Part shown: one piece after another, positions 1,340 through 61,181 of the stretch
How the letters are laid out: every line of letters begins with the position of its first letter
Position numbering within the stretch: the first letter of the stretch is position 1
Assembly (NCBI GenBank): GCA_963696395.1
Contig: CAVOJZ010000002.1
Coordinates: 656,344-720,343, forward strand
Length of the DNA stretch: 64,000 nt
Reading direction: 5' to 3'
Source: an uncultured bacterium
GTDB taxonomy: Bacteria > Patescibacteriota > Minisyncoccia > UBA6257 > 2-01-FULL-56-20
Notes under the pieces: model-generated
The model's input: only the letters and a program-made list of their open reading frames with translations
Told to the model about the DNA's origin: nothing
Database searches by the model: none
Program-made: the position numbers and the translations under genes

Positions 1340-4300
1340 ATGGTTAGTTCAAAACGAAAGATAGCCGCGGTGGGTGTGCTTGCGGTAGGGTTTTTCCTCG
1401 CAGGCGCCATCCTCCGTACGGCGTACGCGGATTCAAGTTCCAGCACGGCAATCTCGAGTTCTTCATTTGCTTCGAGCGAAAGCTACGGATCGAATGCCAC
1501 CTCGAGCGCAACGGCAACTTCAAGCGTTGACGGAAGCTCGGTCTCGGCTTCGGCCTCGAGCGAGAGCGGCAACGATCAAGGACCGGAGTGCGATTGCGGC
1601 GATGGACACGAGCACTCCTGCGCACACCTTAAAGTCTACGTGAATGTCGTGAATGCCGGAGGCGGCACAGCGACGTCATCCGACTTTACGGTTGATGTGA
1701 CCGGGAACAATCCCGATCCGTCTCAATTTCAAGGATCAGCAGCCGGGACCAAAGTGCAACTCGGAAATGGAACGTATAACGCGACGGAGCCGTCTCCGCT
1801 CGTAAATTATTCGGCTTCATATTCCAACGATTGTTCAGGCATCATGGCGAACGGTGATTCGAAAGACTGCAATATCACCGACACCTACGTTCCGTCTTCT
1901 CCCGTTGCTGATATATCGGTTACCAAAGTGGTTGATAATTCGAAACCGAGCGAAGGGGACTTCGTGCATTACACAATAACGGCGACCGACCTCGGCCCGG
2001 CAACTTCAACAGGAGTTGTCGCGTCGGACACGCTGCCTGCAGGAGTCACTTTTGTGAGCGACACCGCATCGCAAGGATCGTACGATCCTGCGACAGGCTT
2101 GTGGAATGTGGGAACGCTTTCGGCGAACTCTTCGGCATCGGTTCAGATCACCGCTACGGTAAATGCCGGGACAGCCGGCGAGACGATCACGAATACCGTG
2201 ACGATCGGTGAATCGTCAACCGAGATCGATCCGGTAACGAGCAACAACACTGCAAGTGCATCGATTACAGTCCAAGGTTGTGGCTGCAACGGCGCGCACA
2301 TCAGGGTGGTTGTGGATGTTATCGGCGGCACAGCGACGTCATCCGACTTTACGGTTGATGTGACCGGAAATAATCCGATCCCTTCACAGTTCCAGGGTTC
2401 CTTGGTTGGAACCGATGTTGCTCTTGGCGCAGGTGCGTATAACGTGACGGAGCCAGCTCCGTTGCCAAACTATACGGCTACCTATGCGAAGGCATGTTCC
2501 GGAACTATTCAGAATGGCGATGATAAGCGTTGTGTCATAACTGACACGTATGCATCATTGCCCTTGGCTGATATTGAAGTCGGGAAGACCGTTGATAATG
2601 CGAATCCGAATGTCGGTGACCCGATCCAATACACGATCACGGCAACCGATCTCGGACCAGCGACATCAACAGGAGTTGTCGCGTCGGATACGTTGCCCTC
2701 GGGAGTCACATATGTGAGCAACACTGCTTCACAGGGATCGTATGATCCTGCGAGCGGTTTGTGGAATGTGGGAACACTTTCCGCAAGCTCGTCGGCATCG
2801 CTCGTCATCAATGTGACGGTTAACGCCGGAACAGCCGGTACGACGATCACAAATACCGCAACGATCGGCGAATCAGCCAGTGAAACCGATCCGAACCCTG
2901 CCAACAATTCTTCGTCAGTCAGCATCCTGGTCCAGGGTGGCGGCGGCGGAGGTAGTACGGCTGACATCGGCATCCTGAAGACGGTCAGCAATGCGAATCC
3001 GGCACCCAACACCACCATCAATTACACTTTGACGGCAATGGCAGCGGGTCCGGCGACTTCGACAGGAGTCGTGGCAACGGATACGTTGCCTGCGGGAGTC
3101 ACGTTTGTTTCCGCAACATCATCCGAAGGTACTTATTCAAGCTCTACGGGAAGTTGGCAGATCGGCGATATGTCGGTCAGCTCTACCGCTCAGCTTGTGA
3201 TAACGGCTTCGGTTGATGCAGCTTCAGCGGGACAGACGATCACGAACACCGCAACGATCGGGGAATCAGCCAGTGAAACCGATCCGAATCCTGCCAACAA
3301 TTCTTCGTCAGTCCAGATTAACGTCCAGGGCGGCGGAGGTGGAGGCAGTACGGCTGACATCCAGATTGAGAAAACCGTTGACAATGCAAATCCGGCGCCG
3401 GGCGCAACCGTGACGTACACGATTGCCGTAACCGACAACGGACCGGACGCGTCTCAAATCGTTGATGCGCAAGACGTTTTGCCGACCGGTCTCAGCATCA
3501 TTTCCGCAACCACGTCACAGGGAACGTTCACCGATGGTGGCACCCTCGACTGGAACATCGGAACGGTTGCTCCGAACGCAACGGCAACGTTGGTTCTCGT
3601 GACTTCCGTCGGTTCCAATACAGCGGGACAGACGATCACGAACACTGCAACGGTAACGCAGTTGAGTTCCATCAACGATCCGAACCTTGCCAACAATTCT
3701 TCGTCAGTCAGCATCCTGGTCCAGGGTGGTGGCGGAGGGGGAGGTGGTGGCGGTGGTGGCGGCGGAACGCCGACCGCGGAAATTGCGATTGCAAAATCCG
3801 TGGACAATGCGAATCCGAGCGTGGGAGCCACGATCCATTACGGTGTCACGGTTTCCGCACTTGGCCCTTCGGCATCGTTGGGAGTTAATGCAACGGATAC
3901 GTTGCCTGCCGGACTCACGTTTGTTTCCGCAACCACATCGGCCGGAATCTATAACGCGAGCTCGGGTTCCTGGAGTCTCGGGACGATCGTTAATGGGACG
4001 CATGCAACGCTTACCATTACCGCTCTTGTCACGGGCACGCCCGGGGAAACAATCACGAACACGGCGACCGTTGGCGAATCGAATGCGGTGAACGATCCGA
4101 ACACGCAGAATAATACTGCGAGTGTATCGCTTACCGTTGCCGGCGGAAGCAGTGGTGGCGGCGGAGGCGGTGGCGGGGAAGTGCTTGGAACAAGCACGAG
4201 CACCGGCCAGGTCCTCGGCGCCAGCTGCGGATTGTATCTGAATGAGTACATTCACCCGATCCGCAAGAACTTGAACGATCCGATGGAGGTGGAAAAACTG

Positions 4301-4543
4301 CAAACGTTCCTGAACCAGAATCTCGGGTTGGACCTTCCGGTCACCGGGTACTATGGTTCAAAGACGATTGCCGCAGTTGACCAGTTCCAGGTGAAATACC
4401 ACTCGGAAGTTCTCGCACCATGGTTACACTTCGGTCTTCCGACCGAATTCACACCAACGGATTACGTGTACAAGACGACGCAGCGCTGGATCAACCTGAT
4501 CATGTGCCCGCCGTTGAATCTCGCAATCCCGCAATTGCCTTAG
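1340..4543 (+). CDS. Cell-surface protein: signal peptide, 2 long tandem units plus 4 further DUF11/CARDB-like repeats separated by poly-Gly linkers, C-terminal peptidoglycan-binding-like domain
   Basis: N-terminal hydrophobic signal. Repeated motif ...TITATDLGPATSTGVVASDTLPAGVTFVS...DPNPANNSSS (conserved repeat domain, DUF11 type). GGGGGG linkers. C-terminus L..DPMEVEKLQTFLNQNLG...TGYYGSKTIAAVDQFQ resembles PG_binding_1. Confidence 0.8.
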   Translation: MVSSKRKIAAVGVLAVGFFLAGAILRTAYADSSSSTAISSSSFASSESYGSNATSSATATSSVDGSSVSASASSESGNDQGPECDCGDGHEHSCAHLKVYVNVVNAGGGTATSSDFTVDVTGNNPDPSQFQGSAAGTKVQLGNGTYNATEPSPLVNYSASYSNDCSGIMANGDSKDCNITDTYVPSSPVADISVTKVVDNSKPSEGDFVHYTITATDLGPATSTGVVASDTLPAGVTFVSDTASQGSYDPATGLWNVGTLSANSSASVQITATVNAGTAGETITNTVTIGESSTEIDPVTSNNTASASITVQGCGCNGAHIRVVVDVIGGTATSSDFTVDVTGNNPIPSQFQGSLVGTDVALGAGAYNVTEPAPLPNYTATYAKACSGTIQNGDDKRCVITDTYASLPLADIEVGKTVDNANPNVGDPIQYTITATDLGPATSTGVVASDTLPSGVTYVSNTASQGSYDPASGLWNVGTLSASSSASLVINVTVNAGTAGTTITNTATIGESASETDPNPANNSSSVSILVQGGGGGGSTADIGILKTVSNANPAPNTTINYTLTAMAAGPATSTGVVATDTLPAGVTFVSATSSEGTYSSSTGSWQIGDMSVSSTAQLVITASVDAASAGQTITNTATIGESASETDPNPANNSSSVQINVQGGGGGGSTADIQIEKTVDNANPAPGATVTYTIAVTDNGPDASQIVDAQDVLPTGLSIISATTSQGTFTDGGTLDWNIGTVAPNATATLVLVTSVGSNTAGQTITNTATVTQLSSINDPNLANNSSSVSILVQGGGGGGGGGGGGGGTPTAEIAIAKSVDNANPSVGATIHYGVTVSALGPSASLGVNATDTLPAGLTFVSATTSAGIYNASSGSWSLGTIVNGTHATLTITALVTGTPGETITNTATVGESNAVNDPNTQNNTASVSLTVAGGSSGGGGGGGGEVLGTSTSTGQVLGASCGLYLNEYIHPIRKNLNDPMEVEKLQTFLNQNLGLDLPVTGYYGSKTIAAVDQFQVKYHSEVLAPWLHFGLPTEFTPTDYVYKTTQRWINLIMCPPLNLAIPQLP

Positions 4544-4646: not shown

Positions 4647-7600
4647 ATGAGGTATTCGTATAAATTTTTTTTTATCACAACCGTTGCACTCTGTGGGGTT
4701 TTTATTATCAATCCAACCGCGAAAGCCGCCCTTTGGAGTGGGATCGTTGATCCTTCGAGAGCGGTTGATTGGAGCCAGGCGGGAGCCACGATTTCGATAA
4801 CCCGAACACAATGCTTCACAACGCAGTGCAATGTGGTTTCAAATGGGACCACCGTTACCGCGGCCTCGATCAACGCGGCACTTGCTTCAGCGCCCGCAAA
4901 CACTTACGTGCTCATTCCCGCCGGATCGTTCACGATGTCGGCCGGACTCAACTTCGATAACAAGAGCAATATAACATTGAGAGGTGCGGGGTCTAACGGC
5001 ACATTTTTGACATTTACCGGTTCTGGCAATGCAGGGAATTGCAACGGAAATGATGTGTGTGCTTCGAGTGCCGACACGAATTATTGGGGCGGTCCATCAA
5101 ACATAGCGACATGGAGTGGCACAAACGGCATGAACGGAAGCTATAGCAAGGGCGCCACATCGATAATATTAAATTCAGTTAACAATCTTTCTGTCGGGAT
5201 GCCGGTGGTACTTGATCAAATTGACGATCAAGCTGATAATGGCGGTCTTTATGTTGGATGTGAATACGGAAGTAGCAACAGCGGTGGAGATGTCTCGACC
5301 GCCTGTTACCCGGGCGGTTATCCAAGCGGCTTCCAGCGTGGCGAAGGTTCACTTTCCACCATCCGTGGCCAACAGCAGATTGTGAACGTCACGAGTATTT
5401 CAGGTTCCGGTCCGTACAACGTGGGAATCTCGCCCGGTATTTATGCGGACAATTTTAAAACGAGCCATTCGCCTGGCGCATGGTGGGCGACCAGTCCGAT
5501 ATATAATGATGCCGTTGAAAATATTTCACTCGATCATACGAATGGCGGAGACGGTATCGACTTCTTTAATTGCACCGGTTGCTGGGTTAAAGGTGTTCGT
5601 GGCGTTCGTGCAAGTGTCACGGGTACCGGATGGGCGAACGTCACGCTTTCGCTTTGCAACCACTGTACCGTGCGGGATTCATATTTCTATGGTTATGACG
5701 GAGATTCATACGGGATAGCGGTTGATCTTGCGAGCGACGTGCTGATTGAAAACAATATAACGCAACGGCCAGAGGTAGTATCATTCTTTAATTCGGATTG
5801 CGAGGGGTGTGTAGCCGATTACAACTTTGGCACCAATGATGTGTTCACGAATTCTTCCAATTGGCTTTCCCAAAGCAGCTACTATCATAGTGTCGATTTA
5901 TTCAGTCTTCTTGAAGGGAATATCGGATCGGGGATTTATGCGGACAGCTTTCACGGAACAAAGGGGTTGAATACGCAGTTCCGGAATCGCTTCGACGGAA
6001 GGGAGGAAAACAATGGAAACGCCACTTACTCTGGAACCGTAGCGTTGCGTCTTAATCCTGGTGCGCGTTACAACAACGCGATCGGAAACATTCTTGGCAC
6101 GCCAGGATATCACACGGTATACGAAAGCACCCCTGCGAGTTACGGTAGTCTTTACAATTCAGTTATTGACGCTGGCGCATACGGAGAAACCGGCACGATG
6201 GATGCTTTGGTTGCCCCGACTTCGATGTTTTGGGGAAACTGGGATGTCGTTTCGAATGCGAGCCGCTGGTGTGGTAATGCTTCCGACCCGGGATGGTCAA
6301 CGACGTGCGCAAGCGTTTCCGAAGTGCCAACGGGGCTGAGTAACTATGCGAACGCCGTTCCACTCACTACGACACTGCCTCCATCTTTTATCTATTCAGC
6401 GAAGCCTTCGTGGTGGCCGGCGAACAAAGCTTGGCCTCCAATTGGACCTGACGTTTCCGGCGGAAATGTAGGGCAATGCTCGGGAGGAATCTACGACAGT
6501 TCCGAGGCGATTTCTTCGGCGGAATGTTCGGGCGGGAGTTTTTCTCCTGTTGCGGGCGGGATGGTGAACAGCATCCCGGCGATGGATTGTTACTTCAATA
6601 TCATGGGAGGAGTTCCAAACGGAACCGGAAACGCCTTGTCGTTTGATCCCTCTCTCTGTTATGCCAGCGGAGGAGGCGGAGACACTCAACCCCCAACGGT
6701 TTCTATCACCAACCCAATAAATGGAGCAACAGTTTCGTCTACGGTTATTATCAGCGCGAATGCCTCCGATAACGTAGCAGTAGCTTCTGTTCAGTTTTTT
6801 GTGGATGGGGCCGCAATTGGCACGGATGGAGCGCCTCCTTATACATTTTCATGGGATTCAACGTCTGTTTCGAATGGAACCCATACGATCACAGCTAAAG
6901 CGACCGATACGTCTGGCAACGCTGCGTCTGCGTCAATCACTGTTACCGTGATGAATATCGGCAACGGTGGGGGAGGATTGGGACAAGTAATACAGACTTG
7001 CGGCAACCAGGCGTACGCAAATAAAAATGTTGCTTGCACGTTCGGAAATGCCATCCAGGCTGGAAACGTTATCGTAGTATACGGGTCGGGGAGTATCGGC
7101 TCTTCTACTGGATCGATTTCTGGGTGTGGGCTCACGTGGACCTATCTCAAGCAGGACGCCGCCACTGGATATGTCTCTGCTTACGCCCCTGTGACAAATA
7201 CGAGCGGTTGCACATTAACGATGAGCGAGAGCAACAGTCCAAGCGATGAATCATATGTGAACGCCATTGAAGTTTCGGGGATTACAACAACGGTGGACGG
7301 AAATTCTTATTCCTACAACACGAATCCCGGTCAATCGTCATATGCGACACCAGACATTATTACTACGTCTGGCAATGACTTCGTAATCGGTTCTTGGCTC
7401 GTCCTTTCGAATAATCAATATGGGAGTCCAACGGTTAACTCTCCTTTTGCTCCGTTGTCATTTTCAGCCGGGAATAATGGGCTTATCACATACGACAATC
7501 AATCCACGCCTGGATCAATATTCGCAACAATTAATACAAACAATTATAGCAACCAAGGATTGCAAACCGTCGCATTCAAAACTTCCGGCTCCGGCGGCGG

Positions 7601-8585
7601 TGGCGACACCCAGGCCCCCACGGTCTCCATCACCGCTCCCTCTTCCGGCTCCACCGTCTCAAGCACCATCTCCGTCCAGGCCTCAGCCTCAGATAATGTA
7701 GGGGTCACCGAAGTCCAGTTCCTCCTCGATGGATCAGTTTCCGCCACCGATCTCTCTTCCCCCTACACCTGGAGCTGGAACACGGCATCATCAAGCAATG
7801 GCCCCCATACCCTCAGTGCCAAAGCCTACGATGCCGCAGGGAACGTGGGTACCGCAACGAATGTCGGTATTACCGTGGCAAATACCTCAGGCACCGAGAC
7901 TTCCACCCCCAGCATTGCTTCCTTCTCCGCCAACCCCGGCACGATAGCCGGAGGACAGGCATCCACCCTCTCCTGGGTCGTATCCGGGAATCCTGCTCCT
8001 ACAATCGGCATCACTCCCGGCATCGGTCAGGTGAGTGGATCATCCGTATCCGTCTCTCCCTCAGAAACCACGGCATATACCCTCACGGCACAAAACAGTC
8101 TCGGAATCGCAACCGCACAAACGACCGTGACGGTAGAGACGAGTGGCGGCGGAGGAGGTGGTGGATCTGGAGGAGGCGGCGGAGGAGGAGGCGGCGGAGG
8201 CTCCGGCTCCGGCTCAGGTAGTAGTTCTGGCTCTGGCTCTGGCTCTTCTTCAGATTCTTCCCCCTCTGCTCTCCAGGCTCTTCTCCAATCCCTCTTGGCA
8301 GAGCTTGAGTCCTTGATCAACGAGCTCAACACCCAGCTTGTAGCCAGCTTTACCCGAAATCTCACGATCGGATCATCAGGACAAGACGTCAAAAACCTCC
8401 AGATCTTCCTGAATGACAACGGCTACACCGTATCCCTATCAGGAGCCGGATCTCCCGGACATGAAGGGACTACCTTTGGGGCAAAAACGGCACAGGCACT
8501 CATGAAATTCCAGGCGAAGCATCAACTCAAAGCCACCGGTTTCTTTGGACCGGCAACGAGGGCATTTATGGAGGGGAAGTGGTGA
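4647..8585 (+). CDS. Giant surface protein paralog (1312 aa): signal peptide, right-handed beta-helix (pectate-lyase-like) domain, Ig-like (Big) domains, Gly/Ser linker, C-terminal PG-binding module
   Basis: Signal peptide MRYSYKFFFITTVALCGVF. Beta-helix-like region with repeated G/N-rich turns. Two DTQ(A/P)PTVSIT...Ig-like domains. GGGGGSGGGG...SGSGS linker. C-terminus LNDNGY...GHEGTTFGAKTAQALMKFQ. Confidence 0.8.
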   Translation: MRYSYKFFFITTVALCGVFIINPTAKAALWSGIVDPSRAVDWSQAGATISITRTQCFTTQCNVVSNGTTVTAASINAALASAPANTYVLIPAGSFTMSAGLNFDNKSNITLRGAGSNGTFLTFTGSGNAGNCNGNDVCASSADTNYWGGPSNIATWSGTNGMNGSYSKGATSIILNSVNNLSVGMPVVLDQIDDQADNGGLYVGCEYGSSNSGGDVSTACYPGGYPSGFQRGEGSLSTIRGQQQIVNVTSISGSGPYNVGISPGIYADNFKTSHSPGAWWATSPIYNDAVENISLDHTNGGDGIDFFNCTGCWVKGVRGVRASVTGTGWANVTLSLCNHCTVRDSYFYGYDGDSYGIAVDLASDVLIENNITQRPEVVSFFNSDCEGCVADYNFGTNDVFTNSSNWLSQSSYYHSVDLFSLLEGNIGSGIYADSFHGTKGLNTQFRNRFDGREENNGNATYSGTVALRLNPGARYNNAIGNILGTPGYHTVYESTPASYGSLYNSVIDAGAYGETGTMDALVAPTSMFWGNWDVVSNASRWCGNASDPGWSTTCASVSEVPTGLSNYANAVPLTTTLPPSFIYSAKPSWWPANKAWPPIGPDVSGGNVGQCSGGIYDSSEAISSAECSGGSFSPVAGGMVNSIPAMDCYFNIMGGVPNGTGNALSFDPSLCYASGGGGDTQPPTVSITNPINGATVSSTVIISANASDNVAVASVQFFVDGAAIGTDGAPPYTFSWDSTSVSNGTHTITAKATDTSGNAASASITVTVMNIGNGGGGLGQVIQTCGNQAYANKNVACTFGNAIQAGNVIVVYGSGSIGSSTGSISGCGLTWTYLKQDAATGYVSAYAPVTNTSGCTLTMSESNSPSDESYVNAIEVSGITTTVDGNSYSYNTNPGQSSYATPDIITTSGNDFVIGSWLVLSNNQYGSPTVNSPFAPLSFSAGNNGLITYDNQSTPGSIFATINTNNYSNQGLQTVAFKTSGSGGGGDTQAPTVSITAPSSGSTVSSTISVQASASDNVGVTEVQFLLDGSVSATDLSSPYTWSWNTASSSNGPHTLSAKAYDAAGNVGTATNVGITVANTSGTETSTPSIASFSANPGTIAGGQASTLSWVVSGNPAPTIGITPGIGQVSGSSVSVSPSETTAYTLTAQNSLGIATAQTTVTVETSGGGGGGGSGGGGGGGGGGGSGSGSGSSSGSGSGSSSDSSPSALQALLQSLLAELESLINELNTQLVASFTRNLTIGSSGQDVKNLQIFLNDNGYTVSLSGAGSPGHEGTTFGAKTAQALMKFQAKHQLKATGFFGPATRAFMEGKW

Positions 8586-21660: not shown

Positions 21661-21680
21661 AGATACAGAAATTGCACATG

Positions 21681-40979: not shown

Positions 40980-41048
40980 TGCCGCGTTATCCCCACCTCC
41001 TCATTTTGCCCCCCCCAGAACACGGTAAACTGATAAGTAAGACACTAC
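40980..41048 (+). repeat. Promoter/leader part of the intergenic module (identical to 34645-34704) including poly-C8 (~41009-41016)
   Basis: ttatccccacctcctcattttgccccccccagaacacggtaaactgataagtaag is repeated verbatim. Confidence 0.7.
41009..41016 (+). promoter_or_regulatory. Poly-C8 homopolymer in the putative promoter spacer upstream of the 41049 gene
   Basis: Same context as 34667-34674. Confidence 0.4.
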
Positions 41049-45715: not shown

Positions 45716-46066
45716 TTGAATATATATATTATGGAAGACCAATCAAATAATCAGCAGCATCCTGAAGGCTGCAAGTGCTGGAAGTGCCAGGGAGGACAGA
45801 TGGACTGTGGCTACTGCCGGAAGCATAACCCGTGGTACCATTTGGCTCGTTGGGCGCTTGCCATTCTTGTCATTGTCGTCGTGTTTTGGTTCGGCCTGTT
45901 CATCGGACGCTTGGAAGGACAGCTTGGCGGCGGACGAACGATGATGCGTCATTCATACTCCGGCGGCTACGGCCATGCGTATCCTATGATGCAGGGAGGT
46001 TACGGCAGCATGGGCACCCATTCGCAGGCGACCCAGTCCGCTCCGTCGGCAACGTCGAACCAGTAA
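45716..46066 (+). CDS. Cys-rich zinc-binding N-domain + single TM + Gly/Met/Tyr-rich tail protein (TTG start with GGAGAAAGG 8 nt upstream; alternative ATG at 45731)
   Basis: CKCWKCQGGQMDCGYCRKH, then WALAILVIVVVFWFGLFIG. The architecture is anti-sigma-factor-like. Confidence 0.4.
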   Translation: MNIYIMEDQSNNQQHPEGCKCWKCQGGQMDCGYCRKHNPWYHLARWALAILVIVVVFWFGLFIGRLEGQLGGGRTMMRHSYSGGYGHAYPMMQGGYGSMGTHSQATQSAPSATSNQ

Positions 46067-46149
46067 AGTTATCAAAGGAAGAAAATTCCTCAACGGGAAT
46101 TGCGTATAGTATTTACGCAAAGGTCGTGAGGGAAACAAATAACAACTAC

Positions 46150-50970: not shown

Positions 50971-51049
50971 AGTCATATCGGACCATCCCGGTTTCTGTGA
51001 AAACGCGGCCTTATCATTTATCTCCAAAGTCATATTGATCCATAGGGTT

Positions 51050-51131
51050 CTAGTGGGCGAAGCACTAAGCTGGCGCTTTGGACCTGGGATAGCAAAGATT
51101 CTAGCTCAACAAAGGTTGGGCTATTTTCTTA
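51050..51131 (+). repeat. Intergenic module copy (hairpin 1 degenerate; terminator hairpin 51103-51131 intact), then a unique leader
   Basis: agcaaagattctagctcaacaaaggttgggctattttctta. Confidence 0.65.
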
Positions 51132-51171
51132 TGGATCGAGAACAAACAAAGCAAAGTGGTAAAATGAAACA

Positions 51172-54100
51172 ATGGGCAAACGATTTTCTGGGCGGCGTCA
51201 CCTCTCCGTTATCTCGGTAATCATCGTTTGTGTTTCTGCTCTTGGCGGTTTAGGAATCGTGACTCACATTGCCCACGCTGATATCACGAGCAACTTATTG
51301 GCATATTGGAAGTTTGATGATGGCAGTGGCACGATCGCCGCCGACAGCTCCGGTAATGGCTATACGGGAACGTTATATAACAATCCAACGTGGACCACGG
51401 GCGAGATCAATGGAGCGCTTTCCTTTAATGGGGCCAACCAGTACGTTCAGACCGGAAACAATCTGACGATTGGCGGCACCAATTTTACCGTGAGTGCATG
51501 GATCAAAGGAACAAATACCGTGATCTCACAGAGAGCAAGCGGAGCGGGTACCGCTCAATGGATCGTAGACATAGGGAACACCGTGAGCTTCTACAGCGAT
51601 AAAAATCCCTGGCTTTCCGGTACTATTCATCTTGTTTCGGGCCAATGGAACCAGGTTGTTGTCGTGGGAACCGCGACCAGTACTCAAATATATGTGAACG
51701 ACGTCCTCGACGTGACGGGTCCTCCTGCGTTTGACGCTTCCTCGCATCAAACCCCAACTAACAATGTTGTGATCGGCTATTCGTCGGGCACCGGCACATA
51801 CTTTTCCGGTGCGATCGACGACGTCCGCATCTATAATCGAACCCTCTTCGCGACGGACATCGCCCAGCTTTATTCTTACAACGGGGGATCGGTCGTCCCT
51901 CCTTCCGCGCCCGTCAATCTGGCCGCGACCGGCGTGACGTCGTCAACGGTCAGTTTATCTTGGAGCGCGAGCGTAGCCGGAACGTATCCGATCGCCGGAT
52001 ATAAAATATATCGGGGAGGACTGCAGGTTGGGACGACGTCGGCCACTTCGTACACCGACTCCGGCCTCCAGGCATCAACCACATATTCATATGGCGTCGC
52101 GGCCTATGATTCGCAAGGGGACATTTCGAACGAGTCGAATGTGGTGACGGTAACGACTTTGCAAGCGGACGGGGGAGGCGGCAGCAATATCGTCACGGCG
52201 GCATCGTGCAATCAAAGCGATGTCCAGGCGGCGCTCAGCGTTGTATCACCCGGCGGCACGGTAGTGATACCGGCCGGGACCTGCACATGGAATGTTGCAG
52301 TCACGGTCGGCACGTCGACGTGGCAGGGTTCCAACCAGATTTTCACCGGCCAGTCGGTTACGCTTCAGGGCGCGGGGATAGACCAGACGACGATCATAGA
52401 CAACACCGACAAGACTGGTCAGAACCCGAGCGTGATCCCGAACGCTCTGTGGATCGCCACCGATGCGTCGCATTCGGTGCGGCTCACGCAAATGACGTTC
52501 ACCGGTTCCGCGACGCCCGATCCGAACAACAAAGCCATGGTTTCCGTGAATGGTTCGGGCATCATTTGGCGCATCGACCACGTGCATTTCATTCCCGATC
52601 GCGATGCCGCTATCGCCGTCAATAATACGGTCCCAGGAGGCCTCATTGACCACAATTCATTCAATCCGACCGGTTGGTATGTCAGTTTATATGTTTTCAA
52701 TGGGGGGAGCCCATTCGGAGATCAATCATGGACCCAGCCAGCCAATTTTGGATCATCAAATTTCACTTTCATTGAAGATAACACCTTTTCTGCAAGCTCG
52801 TCGGTCTTTGGCATCGATGGATGGAGCGGCGAACGAGTCGTGATACGCCATAACACATTCATTAATATGAATTACGGCGATCATGGCACCGAAACGCCGG
52901 GGCGGTTACGCGGCGCTCGAGCTCTCGAGATATATGACAACAATACAACGTTCAACGTCCAACCGGTTGGGAGATTGGTCGATATCAGGTCTGGAACCAG
53001 CTTGATCTATAACAATACGTTCACACTCAACGGGCCATCATGGTGGGCGACCAATATCGGAAGTTACCAAAACTATCGCGACTTCGGCGTCGATATGCGG
53101 GAGTATTTCGGTCAATGCGACGGAACCGCCGGTTTTGATATGAATGACGGTGTGACATACGATGCGGGAACGGCTTCGGCGGCGAGCGTGATAAGTGGCA
53201 ATACGAGCGTGACGACATTTTCAGGAAAGAATTGGACATCCAATCAATGGGTCGGATATTCGATTTTCGATACCGCTACCGCCGGTCAATATCCTCCAGA
53301 CGGCGTGAGCTCGATCATTCTCTCGAATACCACAAACACGATCACGGCGTATTATGACACCACCCATGGGCCAGGATTGACGTTCAATGCCGGAGATGGC
53401 TTCCAGATTCTTCGGGCGACGACATGTTTGGACCAGGTCGGCCGTGGGGCGGGTAATCTCATTTCTGGTTGGCCGGCGACACCTGTCGCGTGGCCGAATC
53501 AGGCACCCGAGCCGTCGTATACCTGGAACAATACTTTGGATGGCTCGACATCCGACCTCATAAGCGAATCTCCGCATGTTGTCGAAGGAAGGGATTTTTT
53601 CAATGAAGTGCAGATGCCGGGGTATATCGCTTTCACTTATCCATTCCCTCTCGATTCAAACGGTTTCCCGAATCCGTCCGGTGGTTCCGGCGGTGGAGAC
53701 ACTCAAGCCCCAACGATATCAATCACTTCCCCCGCGAACAATGCTACGGTTTCCTCGACTATCTCTGTCCAGGCCACTGCCTCAGACAATGTCGGCGTGA
53801 CCGAAGTCCAGTTCCTCCTCGATGGCTCGGTCATCGCCACCGACCTTGCTTCCCCCTACACCTGGAGCTGGAACACAGCATCGTCTACCAATGGATCCCA
53901 TACCCTCTCTGCCAAAGCCTACGATGCCGCAGGGAACGTGGGTACCGCAACGAATGTCGGTATTACCGTGGCAAATACCTCAGGCACTGAGACTTCCACC
54001 CCAAGCATTGCTTCCTTCTCCGCCAACCCCGGCACCATTACTCAAGGACAGGCATCCACCCTCTCCTGGGTCGTATCCGGGAATCCGACCCCTACGATTG

Positions 54101-54651
54101 GCATCACCCCCAATATCGGTCAGGTAAGTGGTTCATCCGTATCCGTAACTCCAAACGAAACCACGGCATATACCCTCACAGCACAAAACAATCTGGGGAT
54201 CGCAACCGCACAAACGACCGTGACGGTAGAGACGAGTGGCGGCGGAGGAGGTGGTGGTTACTCCGGAGGCGGAACCGGCTCAGGTAGTAGTTCTGGCTCT
54301 GGCTCTGGCTCTTCTTCAGATTCTTCCCCCTCTGCTCTCCAGGCTCTTCTCCAATCCCTCTTGGCAGAGCTTGAGTCCTTGATCAACGAGCTCAACACCC
54401 AGCTCGTAGCCAGCTTTACCCGAAACCTCACGATTGGGAATTCGGGAGCGGACGCCAAAAACCTCCAGATCTTCCTCAATGACAACGGCTACACCGTATC
54501 CCTATCAGGAGCTGGATCCCTCGGACATGAATCAACCTACTTTGGCGCAAAGACACAAGAAGCCTTGGCCAAGTGGCAGAAGGCTAATCATCTTCCTGCT
54601 ACCGGATTCTTTGGAGGACTGACGCGGGGGGAGATGGAGAAGCTGTACTAG
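51172..54651 (+). CDS. Giant surface protein paralog (1159 aa): signal/TM, LamG (concanavalin-like lectin) domain, FN3, beta-helix domain, Ig-like (Big) domain, Gly/Ser linker, PG-binding module
   Basis: LamG_3-type motif LLAYWKFDDGSGTIAADSSGNGYTGTL...GALSFNGANQYV...DDVRIYNRTL. The 3' ~1 kb is nearly identical to 7600-8585. Confidence 0.8.
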   Translation: MGKRFSGRRHLSVISVIIVCVSALGGLGIVTHIAHADITSNLLAYWKFDDGSGTIAADSSGNGYTGTLYNNPTWTTGEINGALSFNGANQYVQTGNNLTIGGTNFTVSAWIKGTNTVISQRASGAGTAQWIVDIGNTVSFYSDKNPWLSGTIHLVSGQWNQVVVVGTATSTQIYVNDVLDVTGPPAFDASSHQTPTNNVVIGYSSGTGTYFSGAIDDVRIYNRTLFATDIAQLYSYNGGSVVPPSAPVNLAATGVTSSTVSLSWSASVAGTYPIAGYKIYRGGLQVGTTSATSYTDSGLQASTTYSYGVAAYDSQGDISNESNVVTVTTLQADGGGGSNIVTAASCNQSDVQAALSVVSPGGTVVIPAGTCTWNVAVTVGTSTWQGSNQIFTGQSVTLQGAGIDQTTIIDNTDKTGQNPSVIPNALWIATDASHSVRLTQMTFTGSATPDPNNKAMVSVNGSGIIWRIDHVHFIPDRDAAIAVNNTVPGGLIDHNSFNPTGWYVSLYVFNGGSPFGDQSWTQPANFGSSNFTFIEDNTFSASSSVFGIDGWSGERVVIRHNTFINMNYGDHGTETPGRLRGARALEIYDNNTTFNVQPVGRLVDIRSGTSLIYNNTFTLNGPSWWATNIGSYQNYRDFGVDMREYFGQCDGTAGFDMNDGVTYDAGTASAASVISGNTSVTTFSGKNWTSNQWVGYSIFDTATAGQYPPDGVSSIILSNTTNTITAYYDTTHGPGLTFNAGDGFQILRATTCLDQVGRGAGNLISGWPATPVAWPNQAPEPSYTWNNTLDGSTSDLISESPHVVEGRDFFNEVQMPGYIAFTYPFPLDSNGFPNPSGGSGGGDTQAPTISITSPANNATVSSTISVQATASDNVGVTEVQFLLDGSVIATDLASPYTWSWNTASSTNGSHTLSAKAYDAAGNVGTATNVGITVANTSGTETSTPSIASFSANPGTITQGQASTLSWVVSGNPTPTIGITPNIGQVSGSSVSVTPNETTAYTLTAQNNLGIATAQTTVTVETSGGGGGGGYSGGGTGSGSSSGSGSGSSSDSSPSALQALLQSLLAELESLINELNTQLVASFTRNLTIGNSGADAKNLQIFLNDNGYTVSLSGAGSLGHESTYFGAKTQEALAKWQKANHLPATGFFGGLTRGEMEKLY

Positions 54652-54734
54652 AAGGAGGCAGCAAAAAAGAAATTTCCTAAGATTTTTGCCTAAAGTTCAC
54701 CGTGCATTAGGATAGTACAAATGGCCACTCATCA

Positions 54735-55718: not shown

Positions 55719-56080
55719 TTCGGCTTAAAGGAGTTTGCACACGGGCACTGCTCAATGCCGTTTCGCTCGCCGGGAACTTAGCAATGGAAAATAAATTTGA
55801 TGAGCAATTCCTCAAGCTCGCCGATGTTTGCTATGCCGACGCACTCAATTCGGCGGTGTACGCCAGGCAGGATGTGCGGCTTTTTTATAGCGGCAGGGCT
55901 TTGTATAATGAAGGCATGAAAGTGAGAAGGGTTGTTGAATTGCTCCATCATTTTTGTTGCAAGAAATGTAAGAAATGGTGGTCGATAGGTGATGCGCCGA
56001 TAAATAAGCACGTCTGGTTTTGCCCGTGGTGCGGAACGGAAAATAATTACCAATCCAAGAATGGAAGCGCGAAGCGGTAA
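55700..56080 (+). CDS. Small zinc-ribbon protein, copy 2 (conserved 54-aa core from ATG 55916: MKVRRVVELLHHFCCKKCKKWWSIGDAPINKHVWFCPWCGTENNYQSKNGSAKR; the in-frame upstream extension is unique to this copy)
   Basis: The core is about 90% nt-identical to 30020-30195 and is followed by the module's terminator hairpin. Confidence 0.5.
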   Translation: MDFHAVIRLKGVCTRALLNAVSLAGNLAMENKFDEQFLKLADVCYADALNSAVYARQDVRLFYSGRALYNEGMKVRRVVELLHHFCCKKCKKWWSIGDAPINKHVWFCPWCGTENNYQSKNGSAKR

Positions 56081-56090
56081 CGAAGATTTT

Positions 56091-56119
56091 AGCTCAACAA
56101 AGGTTGGGCTATTTTCTTG
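56091..56119 (+). terminator. Intrinsic terminator of the intergenic module (agctcaac/gttgggct + ATTTTCTT)
   Basis: 8-bp stem with wobble pairs and a 4-nt loop AAAG. The same hairpin occurs at 30230, 34611 and 51103 with compensatory substitutions. Confidence 0.7.
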
Positions 56120-57034: not shown

Positions 57035-57113
57035 GGCGAAGCGCTAAAACAGCGCTTATCCCCAAGTATTATTTCGCTCTAAAGAGGGTCGGGTAAACTG
57101 ATAGGTAAGCTAT
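57035..57113 (+). repeat. Partial intergenic module (hairpin 1 aagcgct/agcgctt; leader ggtaaactgataggtaag), no poly-C
   Basis: gggcgaagcgctaaaacagcgctt...ggtaaactgataggtaagctatATG. Confidence 0.6.
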
Positions 57114-60100
57114 ATGGTAGGAAAACTTCACAAGAAATCTCTCTATATATTGCTGGTTCTCGGGCTTGTTTGTTTTGGGATGCGGGCAGGATACGCGCAC
57201 GCCGATAACCCAACGATTCTTCAAAGTTGTACAAGCGGACACTATAGCGCAACCGCAACGTGTACTCTTACGAATACATTAACAGCCGGAACGACCCTGG
57301 TTGCGGTTGGCTATAGCGGAGCATCTGGCGCGACGTTGTCAACGTCAGGTTGTGGTCTCACATGGACGAAAGTGTTCAGCGATACCGCCTCCTCTAACTT
57401 TACGTGGGACGTTTGGACTGCGACGTCAACGACTGGAGTGTCATGTTCGCCGAGCCAGACCATTAATGTCGGAAACTACAATTTTTTAAATGTCCTTGAG
57501 GTATCGAACATCGGCGCGTTAAATATTTCTCCTGCCGATGAACACGCGGGGTGTGCGACGTCGTGTCAAAGCGGTTCGGTAATCACTACTGCTCCTGGCG
57601 ATTTGGCGTTGGTTGTGGGATTCGTGCCGGGTCAACAGTTAACCTATAGCAACTTTGCAGGCGGGTATACCGTTTTTCAGCAACAAACCTTTACGACCGA
57701 ATCGGGAGGTCTCGGATCGAATGTCGACGCATACTTGGTGCAGTCCGCCGCGGGATCGGCTTCCACCACCTACGACCTTAGCTCTGGCACCGGCTATGCG
57801 GATTCTATTCTCATTCCCTTCACCCAGACTTCATCACCACCTGCCATTTCCTCATTCACCGCCTATCCTATCTGGGTCCCTTCCGTGGGAACATCCACTC
57901 TTTCGTGGAATATATTGAATGCATCTTCTGTTGCCGTCACTCCGGGAAGTTTTAGTACCAGCACCCTCAATGGTTCGACAACGGTGTATCCCACCTCGAC
58001 GACAATCTTCACGCTCACTGCCACGAATGTCCACGGAACAAGCACGGCGACGAGCACTGTCAATGTTGATTCGTCAACGCCAACCACTCCGACGAACCTC
58101 GTCGCGACCGCTATCGATTTTTCACGGATATCTCTCGCGTGGTCATCGAGCACCGATTCGGGCGGGTCGGGTATCGCTGGCTACAATATTTTCAGATGCA
58201 CGGGATCGTGCACTCCCACAATAAAAATCGCGACCTCGTCGGGAGCTTCATATGCGGACAACAATCTCGCCGCCTCCACCACGTACACCTATATCGTTTC
58301 CGCCTTCAATGGAGCGGGGACTTTTTCCCCCACGAGTGCGGCGATGAGCACAACAACTTCGAACAGTAGCGTGAGCGGTCCGTGGACAAGCATTCTCGCG
58401 CCCAGTCGTGCGACCGATTGGACTCAAGCGGGAATCCCGGGAGGCATTCCCAGTCGTGCAACCGTCTGCGCCACTATTACGTCCGGCGCGTCTACTGCAA
58501 ATATTCAGACCGCGATCAATAACTGTCCTGCGAATCAAGTGGTGCTCTTCGGTGCCGGCACTTTTAATCTTACTGCCTCCATCTATGCCAATAAAGGTAT
58601 CGTGTTGCGCGGGAGCGGTCCGACGAATACGACGATCAATCTCGCGACCGGAACCGACATCTATATGGGTTTGAACGGGACTGGTGGATTAGGAAGCGAA
58701 TTCCCGTCCTCGGCGCTTGGTTCCACCAATTGGACGGGCGGACTTGGACAGGGTAGCACGGTCTTGACTTTAGCCAGCACGTCGGGAATTTCTGCAGGCC
58801 AAAATATCGTGCTGGACCAGGACAATGCGCCATGGGTCAACACGACGGGTATTGCGGGTCCATGCACCTCCGGCAACAGCTGTGGTCGAAACGACGACCC
58901 GTTAGGGTTTAGCGGTTCTTCAAACCGAGCACAGGAAGAAATTGTGCACGTGGTGAGCGTGGACAGTCCCACGCAAATTACCATCGCGGCTCCTGGCGTT
59001 TCATTTGATCACAGTGCCAGTCTGTCTCCGCAAGCCTTCTTCTGGACGTGTAACTCGGCCTGCGTCGGCGGTCCCAATTCACCGGGAAATGTTCAGTACG
59101 CAGGCGTTGAAAATATAAGCATTAATGCTAACTCCAACAACTTTGCGGTGAGCATGCCCTATTGCGATTATTGCTGGGTTAAGAACGTAGCGATAACTAA
59201 CCTTGCCCGCTCGGGAGTATTTTTCTGGTGGGGGTATCGAGACGAAGTGCGCGATAGTTATTTTTCCGCATCAAACACTTCCGGCGCCCCAACGGAATAT
59301 GGAATAGAGGTCGAAAATTCGACATTTACCAAAGTCGAAAATAACATACTGTTTGGCATCACTGCGGATTTGCTTCCGGAGGGCTCGTACGGACTTGTTG
59401 CGGGATACAACTATGCGCTAAACACGGCTCCGGGGGCGGAGTTCAGCAGTTTTGAAACGCACTTGTCTCACAATTTCCTTCAACTCTACGAAGGCAATGT
59501 CGTAGCGGGGATAGGATACGATGACGTTTGGGGATCGTCATCGCAAAATACGGATTTTCGCAATTATGTTTCGGGGAATAGTCCGAATAAGAATAATTAC
59601 CGCTATCCAATCGCCATTGATGCGGAGAACGAGTATATGAATATGGTGGGGAATGTTTTGGGCGATGCCTCATTCCACAGGGTATATGTGTGCGATGAAG
59701 CCGACCCCTATATTAGCGACGATTATATTTATGACTTGGGCTTTTCGGATGGTTGTGGGGCCGGTATCACAGATTCTTATCCGTACGATCCTCTGGTCGA
59801 AAGCAGTTTGATGCGCTGGGGAAATTGGGATCCGGCGACATGGATCGCTAACGGTAATACCAATGGTGTGCGTTATTGCACCGGCGCCGGCGCGGGAAAT
59901 CCCGCATGCACTGTTTCTGAAACAGCGAGTACGGATCCAACGTTCCCCGGCCTCGCAAGTCCAACCACAACACTTCCGAATTCTTTCTATTTAGGCAGCA
60001 AGCCATCATGGTTTAACAACGTGAATGGCGTTACTAATGTGCCATGGCCCACTATCGGTCCTGATGTTAACTGCACCACAAACTGTATCGCTAACGCTGC

Positions 60101-61181
60101 TAGTCACGCCGTCATGATTCCCGCAGAGTTGTGTTATGCGAATACGGCAAAAGATGGAAATGGATTTTTGACAGCATTCGACGCGTCGACATGTTATTCC
60201 GGAGAGTATCTCGTTTCTTCCACTCCTCCCTCGATCGCTTCCTTCTCTGCCGCCCCTCAGTATACAGAACCAAGCGTCACCTCAACCCTCTCCTGGAGTG
60301 TGAGTAACGCCTCTTCCGTCTCCATCTCCCCGGGCAGTTTTTCGACCTCAACCCTCATCGGCTCCGTCACCGTGAATCCCACCTCAACCACGACCTACAC
60401 CCTCACGGCTTCTTCGAATGGCAACGGCACAAGTACCGCCCAGACCACCGTGACCGTGCAAAGCATCCCTCCTTCCGTACCCCAGAATCTCTCCGCAACC
60501 CCGGTCTCTCCCTCCGAGATCGATCTCTCCTGGAGTGCCTCCACAAGTTCCATCCCCGTAGCCGGGTATGGCATCTTCCAAGACAGCGTGGAGATTGCAA
60601 CGACCAGTGCTACCAGTTACCAGAATACCGGGCTCAATCAGGACAGCCTCTACGCATATACCGTGGATGCCTTTGACGCCGCAGGGAATGTCTCCGGACA
60701 AAGCTCATCCACAAGCGCAACCACGGAAACCCAGCAATCCGGCGGCGGTGGTGGTGGAGGCGGTGGAGGCGGCGGAGGTGGAGGCGGCGGAGGTGGAGGC
60801 GGCGGCTACTATATCCCTCCCGCATCAACCTCAACCACAACCGGCACGGGGACCGGAACCAGCGGCAACTCCGCACTTCTCCAAACCCTCCTTACCGAAC
60901 TCCTCTCCCTCGTGAAGCAGCTGAATACCCAGCTTGTCGCAACCTTTACGAGAAATCTCACCGTGGGGTCACGGGGGACGGATGTCCAAAACCTCCAGGT
61001 CTTCCTGAATGACAACGGCTACCCGATATCCGAGACGGGAGCAGGATCTCTCGGACACGAATCAACCTACTTTGGCGCCAAGACGGCACAGGCCCTGGCC
61101 AAGTGGCAGAAGGCAAACGGGATCAAGGGGACCGGATTCTTTGGACCGGCAACAAGGGCATTTATGGAGAAGTTGTATTAG
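57114..61181 (+). CDS. Giant surface protein paralog (1355 aa): signal peptide, N-terminal domain shared with the 34705 gene, Ig-like/FN3, beta-helix domain, Ig-like/FN3, long poly-Gly, PG-binding module
   Basis: LHKKSLYILLVLGLVCFGMR signal. C-terminus LNDNGYPISETGAGSLGHESTYFGAKTAQALAKWQKANG. Confidence 0.8.
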   Translation: MVGKLHKKSLYILLVLGLVCFGMRAGYAHADNPTILQSCTSGHYSATATCTLTNTLTAGTTLVAVGYSGASGATLSTSGCGLTWTKVFSDTASSNFTWDVWTATSTTGVSCSPSQTINVGNYNFLNVLEVSNIGALNISPADEHAGCATSCQSGSVITTAPGDLALVVGFVPGQQLTYSNFAGGYTVFQQQTFTTESGGLGSNVDAYLVQSAAGSASTTYDLSSGTGYADSILIPFTQTSSPPAISSFTAYPIWVPSVGTSTLSWNILNASSVAVTPGSFSTSTLNGSTTVYPTSTTIFTLTATNVHGTSTATSTVNVDSSTPTTPTNLVATAIDFSRISLAWSSSTDSGGSGIAGYNIFRCTGSCTPTIKIATSSGASYADNNLAASTTYTYIVSAFNGAGTFSPTSAAMSTTTSNSSVSGPWTSILAPSRATDWTQAGIPGGIPSRATVCATITSGASTANIQTAINNCPANQVVLFGAGTFNLTASIYANKGIVLRGSGPTNTTINLATGTDIYMGLNGTGGLGSEFPSSALGSTNWTGGLGQGSTVLTLASTSGISAGQNIVLDQDNAPWVNTTGIAGPCTSGNSCGRNDDPLGFSGSSNRAQEEIVHVVSVDSPTQITIAAPGVSFDHSASLSPQAFFWTCNSACVGGPNSPGNVQYAGVENISINANSNNFAVSMPYCDYCWVKNVAITNLARSGVFFWWGYRDEVRDSYFSASNTSGAPTEYGIEVENSTFTKVENNILFGITADLLPEGSYGLVAGYNYALNTAPGAEFSSFETHLSHNFLQLYEGNVVAGIGYDDVWGSSSQNTDFRNYVSGNSPNKNNYRYPIAIDAENEYMNMVGNVLGDASFHRVYVCDEADPYISDDYIYDLGFSDGCGAGITDSYPYDPLVESSLMRWGNWDPATWIANGNTNGVRYCTGAGAGNPACTVSETASTDPTFPGLASPTTTLPNSFYLGSKPSWFNNVNGVTNVPWPTIGPDVNCTTNCIANAASHAVMIPAELCYANTAKDGNGFLTAFDASTCYSGEYLVSSTPPSIASFSAAPQYTEPSVTSTLSWSVSNASSVSISPGSFSTSTLIGSVTVNPTSTTTYTLTASSNGNGTSTAQTTVTVQSIPPSVPQNLSATPVSPSEIDLSWSASTSSIPVAGYGIFQDSVEIATTSATSYQNTGLNQDSLYAYTVDAFDAAGNVSGQSSSTSATTETQQSGGGGGGGGGGGGGGGGGGGGGGYYIPPASTSTTTGTGTGTSGNSALLQTLLTELLSLVKQLNTQLVATFTRNLTVGSRGTDVQNLQVFLNDNGYPISETGAGSLGHESTYFGAKTAQALAKWQKANGIKGTGFFGPATRAFMEKLY

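Follow-up and report, generated by a model that had tools for sequence, protein, structure and literature searches.

Six large genes, named here B–G, most probably encode a family of wall-tethered surface proteins which carry independently captured heads of the pectin-lyase fold between ends touched by gene conversion, and which would form a repertoire for binding or cleaving polysaccharide. We assign this reading a probability of about 0.6. The genes lie in the window, i.e., the whole stretch of 64,000 nucleotides analysed here. The sequences support the view that B–G are a paralogous, modular family of secreted proteins with a PG-binding domain in a CPR-type genome. Gene A, on the other hand, is an outlier having only the general plan in common with B–G; jointly with the scheme for B–G, it is best explained as a separate DUF11/isopeptide-type adhesin-like protein that would follow a related anchoring principle.

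Architecture and proposed anchoring of the seven proteins

The seven ORFs (1067–1803 aa) are all on the + strand, to which every coordinate given below refers; they begin exactly where a preliminary description had placed them and cover 44% of the window. These large secreted proteins represent ~3% of a tiny CPR/Paceibacterota-like genome: protein B is recorded on a 913,682-bp contig, and the relatives belong to Patescibacteria/Paceibacterota MAGs whose chromosomes measure ~828 kb, in line with the reduced-genome, CPR-like bacterium proposed earlier. The genomic neighbours are dnaG, rpoD, alaS, ribosomal protein and ABC transporter genes. Read from the sequence, all seven N-termini display basic residues, then a hydrophobic segment and an AxA-like site, consistent with the signal peptide previously suggested for each. 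The KKSLYIL.. motif described as near-identical in four of them is found as such in C, D, and G, while E has two deviations.

In the proposed common plan, B–G would be a lineage-specific family, secreted by the Sec pathway and tethered non-covalently to the cell wall. The signal peptide is followed by a "stalk" of Ig-like, fn3 and Big_7 domains, often with a ~210-aa module, by a beta-helix "head" and by more stalk; in the C-terminal part, a poly-Gly hinge leads to an amphipathic helix and on to the PG_binding_1 anchor. Pfam profiles agree with the DUF11, LamG, FN3 and Big domains named earlier (DUF11 in A; Laminin_G_3 in F; fn3 in C–G; Big_7 in B, C, and F), and the poly-Gly and Gly/Ser linkers are likewise apparent. 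The reported richness in N-x-S/T sequons turned out to be a composition effect, since their number (19–37 per protein) equals that of composition-preserving shuffles (z −1.1 to +1.8).

Gene A (1340–4543; 1067 aa) encodes a signal peptide, a Ser-rich stretch and five DUF11 repeats, together with fimbrial domains of the isopeptide type and poly-Gly linkers (DUF11, 521 bits; TIGR04226, 82 bits). In gene B (4647–8585; 1312 aa) the signal peptide is followed by a type-1 beta-helix head (4728–6686), Big_7, an uncharacterised ~210-aa module (6969–7601), Big_7, an Ig-like domain, a Gly/Ser linker, the helix and PG_binding_1 (8262–8582). Gene C (30321–34508; 1395 aa) comprises a signal peptide, an N-domain (30405–31085), Big_7, Ig-like and fn3 domains, a type-2 head (31923–33575), Ig-like and fn3 domains, poly-Gly, the helix and PG_binding_1 (34194–34505); gene E (41049–44897; 1282 aa) has the same architecture (N-domain 41139–41792, type-2 head 42321–43958, anchor 44583–44894). 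The longest protein is encoded by gene D (34705–40116; 1803 aa), with a signal peptide, an N-domain (34792–35424), Ig-like and fn3 domains, a type-1 head plus C-terminal extension (35956–38334), then Ig-like, two fn3, Ig-like and fn3 domains, poly-Gly, the helix and PG_binding_1 (39802–40113). Gene G (57114–61181; 1355 aa) is built as D minus the extra insert of one Ig-like and two fn3 domains (N-domain 57201–57839, type-1 head 58365–60218, anchor 60867–61178). Finally, gene F (51172–54651; 1159 aa) encodes a signal peptide, Laminin_G_3 (51427–51864), fn3, a type-3 head (52174–53685), Big_7, an Ig-like domain, a Gly/Ser linker, the helix and PG_binding_1 (54337–54648), its 3′ end being a mosaic of B and D.

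All seven proteins score above the Pfam gathering score of PG_binding_1 (PF01471; 23 bits). The match reaches 38–47 bits in B–G and is full-length in B, C, E, and G (1–57/57) and near-full-length in D and F (1–54/57). The claim of a common C-terminal block in all seven therefore holds for this domain and fails for the helix block, which A does not have; its PG_binding_1 (aa 983–1020) is divergent and only partially matched (25.3 bits, 4–41/57). Within A–G, the combination of poly-Gly, helix and PG_binding_1 is specific to B–G. The helix plus PG_binding_1 module is rare: it has 5 matches among 5.8 billion clusters, 7 loci across 185,579 species genomes (each of them from Patescibacteria/Paceibacterota or unclassified ~828-kb MAGs), and 10 metagenome loci. 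In the relatives and the metagenome loci, this anchor and stalk accompany different heads and a different order of domains, and the module could serve to mark such surface proteins in related genomes. PG_binding_1 forms the C-terminus in all of A–G, where LPXTG, a hydrophobic stretch and a basic tail are all lacking, and the Pfam profile search gave no SLH match in any of them; sortase (LPXTG) or SLH anchoring is ruled out by C-termini devoid of either signal.

Fold, origin and likely function of the heads

The heads fall into three families, with type 1 in B, D, and G, type 2 in C and E, and type 3 only in F. The two types, each in a pair of genes, of the preliminary description thus became three, of which only type 2 forms a pair. 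AF2 models of two of the six heads (pLDDT 91.4 and 87.2) showed a predicted right-handed parallel beta-helix (pectin-lyase fold), to which we assign the three families. The top structural matches are enzymes, and head identity to the structural neighbours is 7–19%. No head of B–G passes the gathering score of Pfam Beta_helix or Pectate_lyase; only G gives sub-threshold matches (Beta_helix, 17.7 bits vs. 25.9; Pect-lyase_RHGA_epim, 21.2 vs. 27), and for F, 8 of 46 homologs match Beta_helix. The CAZy-type models do not recognise the heads, which yielded no CAZy-family active-site signature and no PDB sequence match. Conserved Asp/Glu/His/Arg columns are retained: the family-conserved charged/His residues are kept at 19/20 positions in B, 16/17 in both C and E, and 19/21 in F, and at 13/20 in D and 14/20 in G, the last two having lost about a third of the charged ones.

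The heads resemble foreign stand-alone proteins more than one another. The head of B is 72% identical to P0008/P0247 vs. ~32% to its paralogs D and G; that of C is 72% identical to P0126 and that of E 61% to P0163, vs. 38% between C and E. Overall, in-genome paralogs share 32–42% of their head residues. The named relatives of the B head are all Terriglobia (Acidobacteriota), among which it nests in an NJ tree computed, like all trees of this analysis, without bootstrap support, and the D head groups with a CPR protein of L002. Since each head has its own nearest foreign relative, each would have been acquired from other bacteria in a separate capture or exchange and then joined to a scaffold common to the family. 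In the 5 contexts examined, stand-alone homologs of the heads always lie inside exopolysaccharide (EPS) biosynthesis clusters of other bacteria, next to GTs, Wzy, Wzx, UDP-Glc dehydrogenase and deacetylases.

Most likely, B–G function as wall-tethered enzymes that bind or cleave polysaccharide. The cell would display a repertoire of such enzymes, probably cleaving as well as binding, and by analogy with phage tailspike depolymerases, RbmB and WceF the target may be the EPS or capsule that surrounds neighbouring bacteria, hosts possibly among them. A bolder version, less probable and tentative, takes the proteins for an arsenal of tailspike-like EPS depolymerases with heads derived from the EPS clusters of the hosts (for B, Terriglobia/Acidobacteriota), each opening one host capsule. 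The set of heads would then be a record of host range, and the leader and anchor, whose similarity conversion maintains, would act as landing pads for new heads. If the heads are indeed active depolymerases from host EPS clusters, hosts could be predicted from sequence, the candidate here being Terriglobia, and an epibiont would have a concrete mechanism for passing through the capsule of its host, parallel to that of phage tailspikes. To our knowledge, hosts and mechanisms of attachment have been established for hardly any CPR bacteria of soils and sediments.

Rather unlikely is the reading of these proteins as non-catalytic adhesins or a structural coat, in which the beta-helix and Ig/fn3 domains would be only a binding or spacer scaffold for attachment to hosts or particles. 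The enzymes at the top of the structural matches argue against it, as do the stand-alone homologs, which belong to EPS biosynthesis clusters and there have the role of processing the polymer, and the retention in B, C, E, and F of nearly all the conserved charged/His residues.

CPR bacteria are fermenters dependent on external sugars, which would suit nutrient scavenging, with environmental polysaccharides broken down for food, or trimming of the own capsule, without any host role. This explanation shares its folds and homologs with the preferred reading of B–G as polysaccharide-binding or -cleaving enzymes, and, judging from cluster context, the homologs in donor-type genomes act on the EPS of their own cell. 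However, no EPS biosynthesis, sugar-uptake or sugar-catabolism genes lie beside any of A–G in the 64-kb window, and several foreign head origins fit several foreign substrates better than one self polymer, so that we consider this explanation improbable. It differs from the preferred reading only in the purpose of the activity.

Gene conversion in the conserved ends

Gene conversion between the paralogs was demonstrated, and only in the conserved ends. In gene F, tract 1 (54262–54531) matches B 8196–8465 with 93.8% identity over 257 nt, including a 130-nt exact match, the longest between any paralogs; tract 2 (54529–54680) matches D 39994–40145 with 92–97% identity and extends past the stop codon to include part of the 3′ flank. 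The informative sites switch from B-like (101:7) to D-like (5:68; p ≤ 2e-4), and pS is 0.17 in tract 1 vs. 0.66 beyond the breakpoint, and 0.22 in tract 2 vs. 0.68 before it. The maximum chi-squared test gave p ≤ 2e-4 for F, D, B, and C, and junctions were located also in D and B. In the anchor trees, the 5′ part clusters by genome and the 3′ part is incongruent; a second genome displays the same contrast, with 88% identity at the 3′ end and 65% in the heads. Mosaic junctions, tracts of lowered pS and paralogs that cluster by genome together indicate concerted evolution.

At the other end of the genes, a C-rich 5′ leader directly upstream of D (34646–34700) is 100% identical over 55 nt to that upstream of E (40987–41041). 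Both contain a C8 run, the only ones in the window, and related copies precede C (30265–30320) and G (57092–57113). A second repeated element, intergenic and made of two hairpins (30176–30262), has copies at 34558–34644 and 51049–51135, a partial copy at 56078–56118 and degenerate copies at 40170–40296, ~44915 and 57030; z values of −4.6, −4.3, and −2.5 were obtained for the element. Its second hairpin precedes a U-run and is therefore terminator-like, and the element separates the transcription units; terminator-like hairpins were found in all 3 downstream regions scanned (those of a Zn-ribbon ORF, C, and D).

Exchange tracts were found only in anchor, stalk and leader, while the central domains have saturated dS between paralogs and share no tracts. 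Between anchors, dS is 0.6–2.3 (about 1) and dN/dS 0.07–0.38, and the blocks shared by paralogs are overall 68–85% identical by self-BLAST. Indeed, the block at 33790–34080, earlier called nearly identical to its three copies, is 88.6%, 75.1%, and 82.1% identical to them, which makes that wording an overstatement. Most of the anchor similarity is old paralogy under purifying selection, as the preliminary description had allowed as an alternative. The block exchange that it had put forward is borne out by the sharp 3′ anchor junctions and the identical D/E leader, but not as a system diversifying a repertoire: the detected conversion is occasional and homogenises the conserved ends, and the leader/signal and anchor ends would from time to time be made alike in this way. 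As for the heads, saturated synonymous divergence and grouping with different foreign stand-alone proteins point to a diversity that arose over long periods from domains captured independently and shuffled. Whatever the function, two evolutionary modes would coexist in one gene family of a 0.9-Mb genome, the functional module being captured from foreign sources and the anchoring and regulatory ends evolving in concert.

Programmed antigenic or phase variation, with the paralogs as often-recombined cassettes like pilE/pilS, vlsE and MgPa, could draw on the mosaic junctions, on conserved 5′ and 3′ ends able to guide recombination and on a C8 run that could change length, but is very unlikely. 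The exchanged tracts occupy the constant ends and spare the variable heads, and they are 92–97% rather than 100% identical and hence not very recent; no recombinase, invertase or reverse transcriptase gene flanks A–G (domain scan of window ORFs). Moreover, full-length copies with start codon and signal peptide (7/7), leader motifs preceding C, D, E, and G, and hairpins of terminator type downstream where scanned leave no expression-site/silent-donor layout and no silent donor cassettes.

Comparison with known systems

Cassette-type antigenic variation (pilE/pilS, vlsE, tprK, MgPa) does not describe the locus: promoter-less truncated donors are absent, all seven ORFs being complete, and the heads, without shared tracts, reveal no segmental exchange in the variable region. 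A diversity-generating retroelement was discarded as well, with no RT domain in the scanned ORFs of at least 150 aa and no TR/VR-like repeat pair by self-BLAST.

The outer-membrane beta-barrel adhesins Hop/Bab of Helicobacter pylori, in which conversion swaps the functional middle, resemble B–G in their conserved ends, divergent middles and conversion-made mosaic junctions; however, they are non-homologous, and the tracts detected in B–G are confined to anchor and leader. With Gram-positive multidomain glycanases and adhesins bound non-covalently to the wall (PG_binding_1, LysM, SLH, CWB), the window proteins share the signal peptide, catalytic or binding modules, the Ig/fn3 spacers and a wall-binding module, but differ in the very rare helix plus PG_binding_1 module and in heads not recognised by Pfam or CAZy-type models. 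Phage tailspike and capsule depolymerases (LKA1 gp49, Klebsiella K1/K21/K64), together with the beta-helix enzymes RbmB (Vibrio) and WceF (Pantoea) of EPS clusters, are only 7–16% identical to the window proteins, which unlike them have a C-terminal PG_binding_1 tether and Ig/fn3 stalks. Tailspikes occur in a phage context and have an N-terminal particle-binding domain, whereas the window genes are chromosomal and the proteins have Sec signal peptides instead; housekeeping neighbours and the lack of a virion-attachment N-terminus rule out that these are tailspike depolymerases themselves.

The extracellular Giant1–5 proteins of Apilactobacillus kunkeei have 3000–8000 aa and an N-terminal beta-solenoid (PMC12863079). 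They resemble the window proteins in being very large, clustered surface proteins to which a small genome devotes several percent of its length, in having beta-solenoid binding domains, and in showing exchange between distant taxa and short tracts of intragenic recombination between paralogs (PMC12863079). Phylum, domains and anchors differ: the window proteins have 1100–1800 aa, carry pectin-lyase-fold heads of three families in a central position and end in a PG_binding_1 tail.

A rare family of modular, predicted surface proteins

Seven long ORFs, all on the + strand, begin exactly at the starts given in the preliminary description: gene A (1340-4543), B (4647-8585), C (30321-34508), D (34705-40116), E (41049-44897), F (51172-54651) and G (57114-61181). 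All are complete genes, and their summed length is 28,140 nt, corresponding to 44% of the window and to ~3% of the contig (913,682 bp) that carries the database record of protein B. As claimed, the seven N-termini read as signal peptides, in which basic and hydrophobic stretches are followed by an AxA-like site; the KKSLYIL... motif attributed to four of them is found in C, D and G, and in E with two deviations. At the opposite end, Pfam supports PG_binding_1 in 7/7 proteins (38-47 bits in B-G; 25 bits, with a partial match, in A). The helix said to precede it in every protein is present in B-G but not in A, so that only B-G share the unit made up of poly-Gly, helix (LLAELE.LI..LNTQLV) and PG_binding_1, hereafter the anchor. 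Gene A is an outlier, carrying five DUF11 repeats (Pfam) and isopeptide-type fimbrial domains (NCBIfam).

Of the remaining domain assignments, Pfam also upheld DUF11, Big_7 (genes B, C and F), fn3 (C-G) and Laminin_G_3 (F). On the other hand, the reported richness in N-x-S/T sequons disappears upon comparison with composition-preserving shuffles, which give equal counts (z -1.1 to +1.8). An additional module of ~210 aa (N-domain), for which Pfam and PDB sequence searches returned no match, is present in five of the seven proteins and in relatives. Its position is mostly N-terminal, as in C (30405-31085), D (34792-35424), E (41139-41792) and G (57201-57839), while it lies mid-protein in B (6969-7601); at related loci it occurs at 2146-2790 of L002, at 6245-6880 of L004 and, internally, at 8306-8935 of L005.

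The anchor module is very rare: a search of 5.8 billion protein clusters yielded five fragmentary matches, and one of 185,579 species genomes yielded seven loci, to which ten further metagenome loci are added. Since the seven loci belong to genomes labelled Patescibacteria group or Candidatus Paceibacterota, or to unclassified closed chromosomes of 827-829 kb, the proposed CPR-type origin is supported. In the relatives and metagenome loci the same anchor and stalk of Ig-like/fn3/Big_7 modules are combined with different domain orders and different central domains (heads), some of them unidentified. B-G are thereby shown, at the level of sequence, to be a rare, lineage-specific family of predicted secreted proteins with a PG_binding_1 tail and a modular Ig/fn3 stalk; our literature searches found no account of this CPR protein family.

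Fold and origin of the heads

The central domains were not recognised by sequence searches of Pfam and PDB. Isolated central and N-terminal segments gave nothing in Pfam at E<=10 except sub-threshold matches in G, and PDB sequence/profile searches with segments of the three head types defined below and of the N-domain gave no meaningful match. Profile searches with the head sequences, however, retrieved hundreds of homologs, and AlphaFold2 models were built from the resulting alignments for the heads of B (pLDDT 91.4, pTM 0.93) and E (pLDDT 87.2, pTM 0.91). The F head falls in another large family, the third, with 3,884 representatives; of 46 members sampled, 8 match Pfam Beta_helix. Aligned to the type-1 profile with hhalign, the F head matched over only 53 columns, at the N-terminal cap. 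Given the confident B and E models and the placement of the F head in a separate Beta_helix-matching family, we assign the heads to three beta-helix families, with B, D and G carrying type 1, C and E type 2, and F alone type 3. The earlier view that more than one beta-helix type is shared among the genes is thus correct, but the types do not fall into two pairs. Charged and His residues conserved within each family are kept at 19/20 positions in B, 16/17 in both C and E, and 19/21 in F, as compared to 13/20 in D and 14/20 in G. E396, D406 and D492 of the B segment are among the conserved acidic residues, and the heads occupy aa 28-680 of B, 536-1085 of C, 425-970 of E and 335-838 of F. The type-1 head of D has an extra C-terminal extension of ~110 aa (YNIPA...KQFNE.IYQ; 38000-38334, D aa ~1100-1210), which is present in CPR proteins of loci L002 and L007 and absent from B and G.

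Judging from pairwise identities, the heads of B, C and E are nearer to foreign stand-alone proteins than to their in-genome paralogs. The B head is 72% identical to the stand-alone homologs P0008/P0247 vs ~32% to D and G; the C head shares 72% with P0126 and the E head 61% with P0163, as against 38% between C and E. All B-head relatives with taxon names are Terriglobia (Sulfotelmatobacter, Terriglobales, Acidobacteriaceae, Telmatobacter, Terracidiphilus). In a neighbour-joining tree of type-1 heads, B is nested among the Terriglobia sequences, D joins a protein encoded in a related CPR genome, and G stands alone on its branch. In the type-2 tree, C and E occupy distant clades, and another CPR genome contributes copies that make up a third. 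These results show that the pectin-lyase-fold heads have several independent origins, one of them nested among Terriglobia proteins. An assembly chimera is an unlikely explanation, because a single ORF holds both the foreign-type head and, in frame with it, the CPR-specific anchor, and the two have similar GC content. In each of the five genomic neighbourhoods examined, the stand-alone homologs are found inside polysaccharide biosynthesis clusters, which encode glycosyltransferases, Wzy, Wzx-type flippases, UDP-glucose dehydrogenase, deacetylases and acyltransferases.

Exchange between paralogs and the genomic setting

Nucleotide blocks shared by the paralogs had been called nearly identical; their actual identity is 68-85%, and the three copies of the block at 33790-34080 match it at 88.6%, 75.1% and 82.1% identity. 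The longest exact matches between paralogs are of 130 and 78 nt (both B/F), 55 nt (D/E) and 50 nt (E/G). An alignment of the 3' ends (final 420 nt and 80 nt of flanking sequence) reveals that F is 95-100% identical to B over linker and helix and then 92-97% identical to D, the D-like stretch continuing beyond the stop codon into the 3' flank. The breakpoint lies at ~54,532, where informative sites change from 101:7 to 5:68 (maximum-chi-squared permutation test, p<=2e-4); junctions are also found in D, B and C. Inside the tracts the synonymous differences are 0.17 (B-F) and 0.22 (D-F), while the same pairs reach 0.66-0.68 on the other side of the breakpoint. In agreement, the six window copies group together in the tree of the anchor 5' half, as do both copies of the related genome OY970126.1, and the tree of the 3' half is incongruent with it. 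The two giants of OY970126.1 are 88% identical over the last 1.36 kb vs ~65% in the heads. Gene conversion between paralogs has therefore occurred in the shared ends.

Ancient paralogy under purifying selection accounts for most of the similarity, since most anchor pairs show dS of 0.6-2.3 with dN/dS of 0.07-0.38 and the head dS is saturated; as the sole explanation it fails for the tracts, with their mosaic junctions and low internal synonymous difference. Sporadic conversion tracts overlie this old paralogy and are limited to the constant ends. The postulated exchange of blocks is retained in this form, but not as a programmed cassette system: the genes are complete and followed in part by terminator-like hairpins, and a scan of the ORFs around A-G found no flanking recombinase, invertase or reverse transcriptase, so that silent cassettes, DGR and recombinase were rejected.

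D and E are immediately preceded by a C-rich leader of 55 nt that is 100% identical in the two; C and G have related leaders. The motif is not conserved 5' of the relatives' genes and is therefore genome-specific; scanning the leaders for a sigma-70 consensus gave no promoter, and site numbers did not exceed those in shuffles. The D and E leaders contain the only C8 runs of the 64-kb window (34668-34675 and 41009-41016), where the C leader has C5. If variable in length, this tract could switch expression.

Terminator-like hairpins lie 3' of C, D and a 54-aa zinc-ribbon-like ORF (CxxC...CPWC), and related hairpin elements stand between the other units. The ORF is found in two + strand copies, upstream of C (30031-30195) and ~1 kb upstream of G (55916-56080), 93% identical over 152 nt and each followed by the element. 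This two-hairpin element, GGGCGAAGCGC...GCGCTTCG, then TAGCTCAACAAAGGTTGGGCTA, then TTTTCTT, occurs at 30176-30262, 34558-34644, 51049-51135 and 56078-56118, with degenerate copies at 40170-40296, ~44915, 57030 and 21643-21768. Its folding is much stronger than that of shuffled sequence, and it resembles a REP-like/terminator module; its first-hairpin motif occurs twice in L005, and an Rfam search returned no family for it.

The neighbouring genes are of an ordinary chromosomal kind (dnaG, rpoD, alaS of 600 aa, rpsK, rpsD, rpoA, ABC/HlyD transport, VanY). A type III R-M island at ~24000-30000 has lower GC (44%) and is strongly GC-skewed; a full-length LOOT RNA (RF03000; 24173-24293, +; 89.9 bits vs a gathering score of 46.4) immediately precedes its methylase gene (24300-26486). 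The island is adjoined by an IS30-like transposase (22779-23801, - strand; HTH_38 and a weak rve match), which is adjacent to none of A-G. Directly downstream of B lies a probable secreted CAP/SCP-domain protein (8633-9673, +). Downstream of E are a DUF5666 protein (45097-45684) and a probable secreted N/S/T/G-rich ORF with a weak PKD match (45832-47019, +). On a related metagenome contig (L001), a DUF5666 protein (304-1212) likewise comes after a fragment of an anchor-bearing gene, which suggests conserved local synteny.

Possible function and known analogues

Considering the fold neighbours, the exopolysaccharide (EPS)-cluster context of the homologs and the retained conserved residues, we infer that the heads bind, and probably cleave, extracellular polysaccharide. 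The bacterium, with its small genome, is probably epibiotic. The most economical reading is that the proteins would form a displayed repertoire of capsule/EPS-active proteins, aimed at neighbour or host cells in the manner of phage tailspikes. Alternatively, the heads may serve non-catalytic adhesion or nutrient scavenging, or may process a polymer made by the bacterium itself. If the displayed heads are indeed host-derived depolymerases, host range could be read from them.

The closest functional analogues are the phage tailspike depolymerases, RbmB and WceF, which have their fold in common with the heads; RbmB and WceF also share the EPS-cluster setting of the stand-alone homologs. However, the window heads are no more than 7-16% identical to these proteins, lie outside any phage context and are attached differently. 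In evolutionary terms, the closest analogues are the Apilactobacillus kunkeei surface proteins Giant1-5 and the H. pylori adhesin paralogs; the A. kunkeei Giant proteins are reported to have beta-solenoid domains, exchange between genera and short recombination tracts (PMC12863079).
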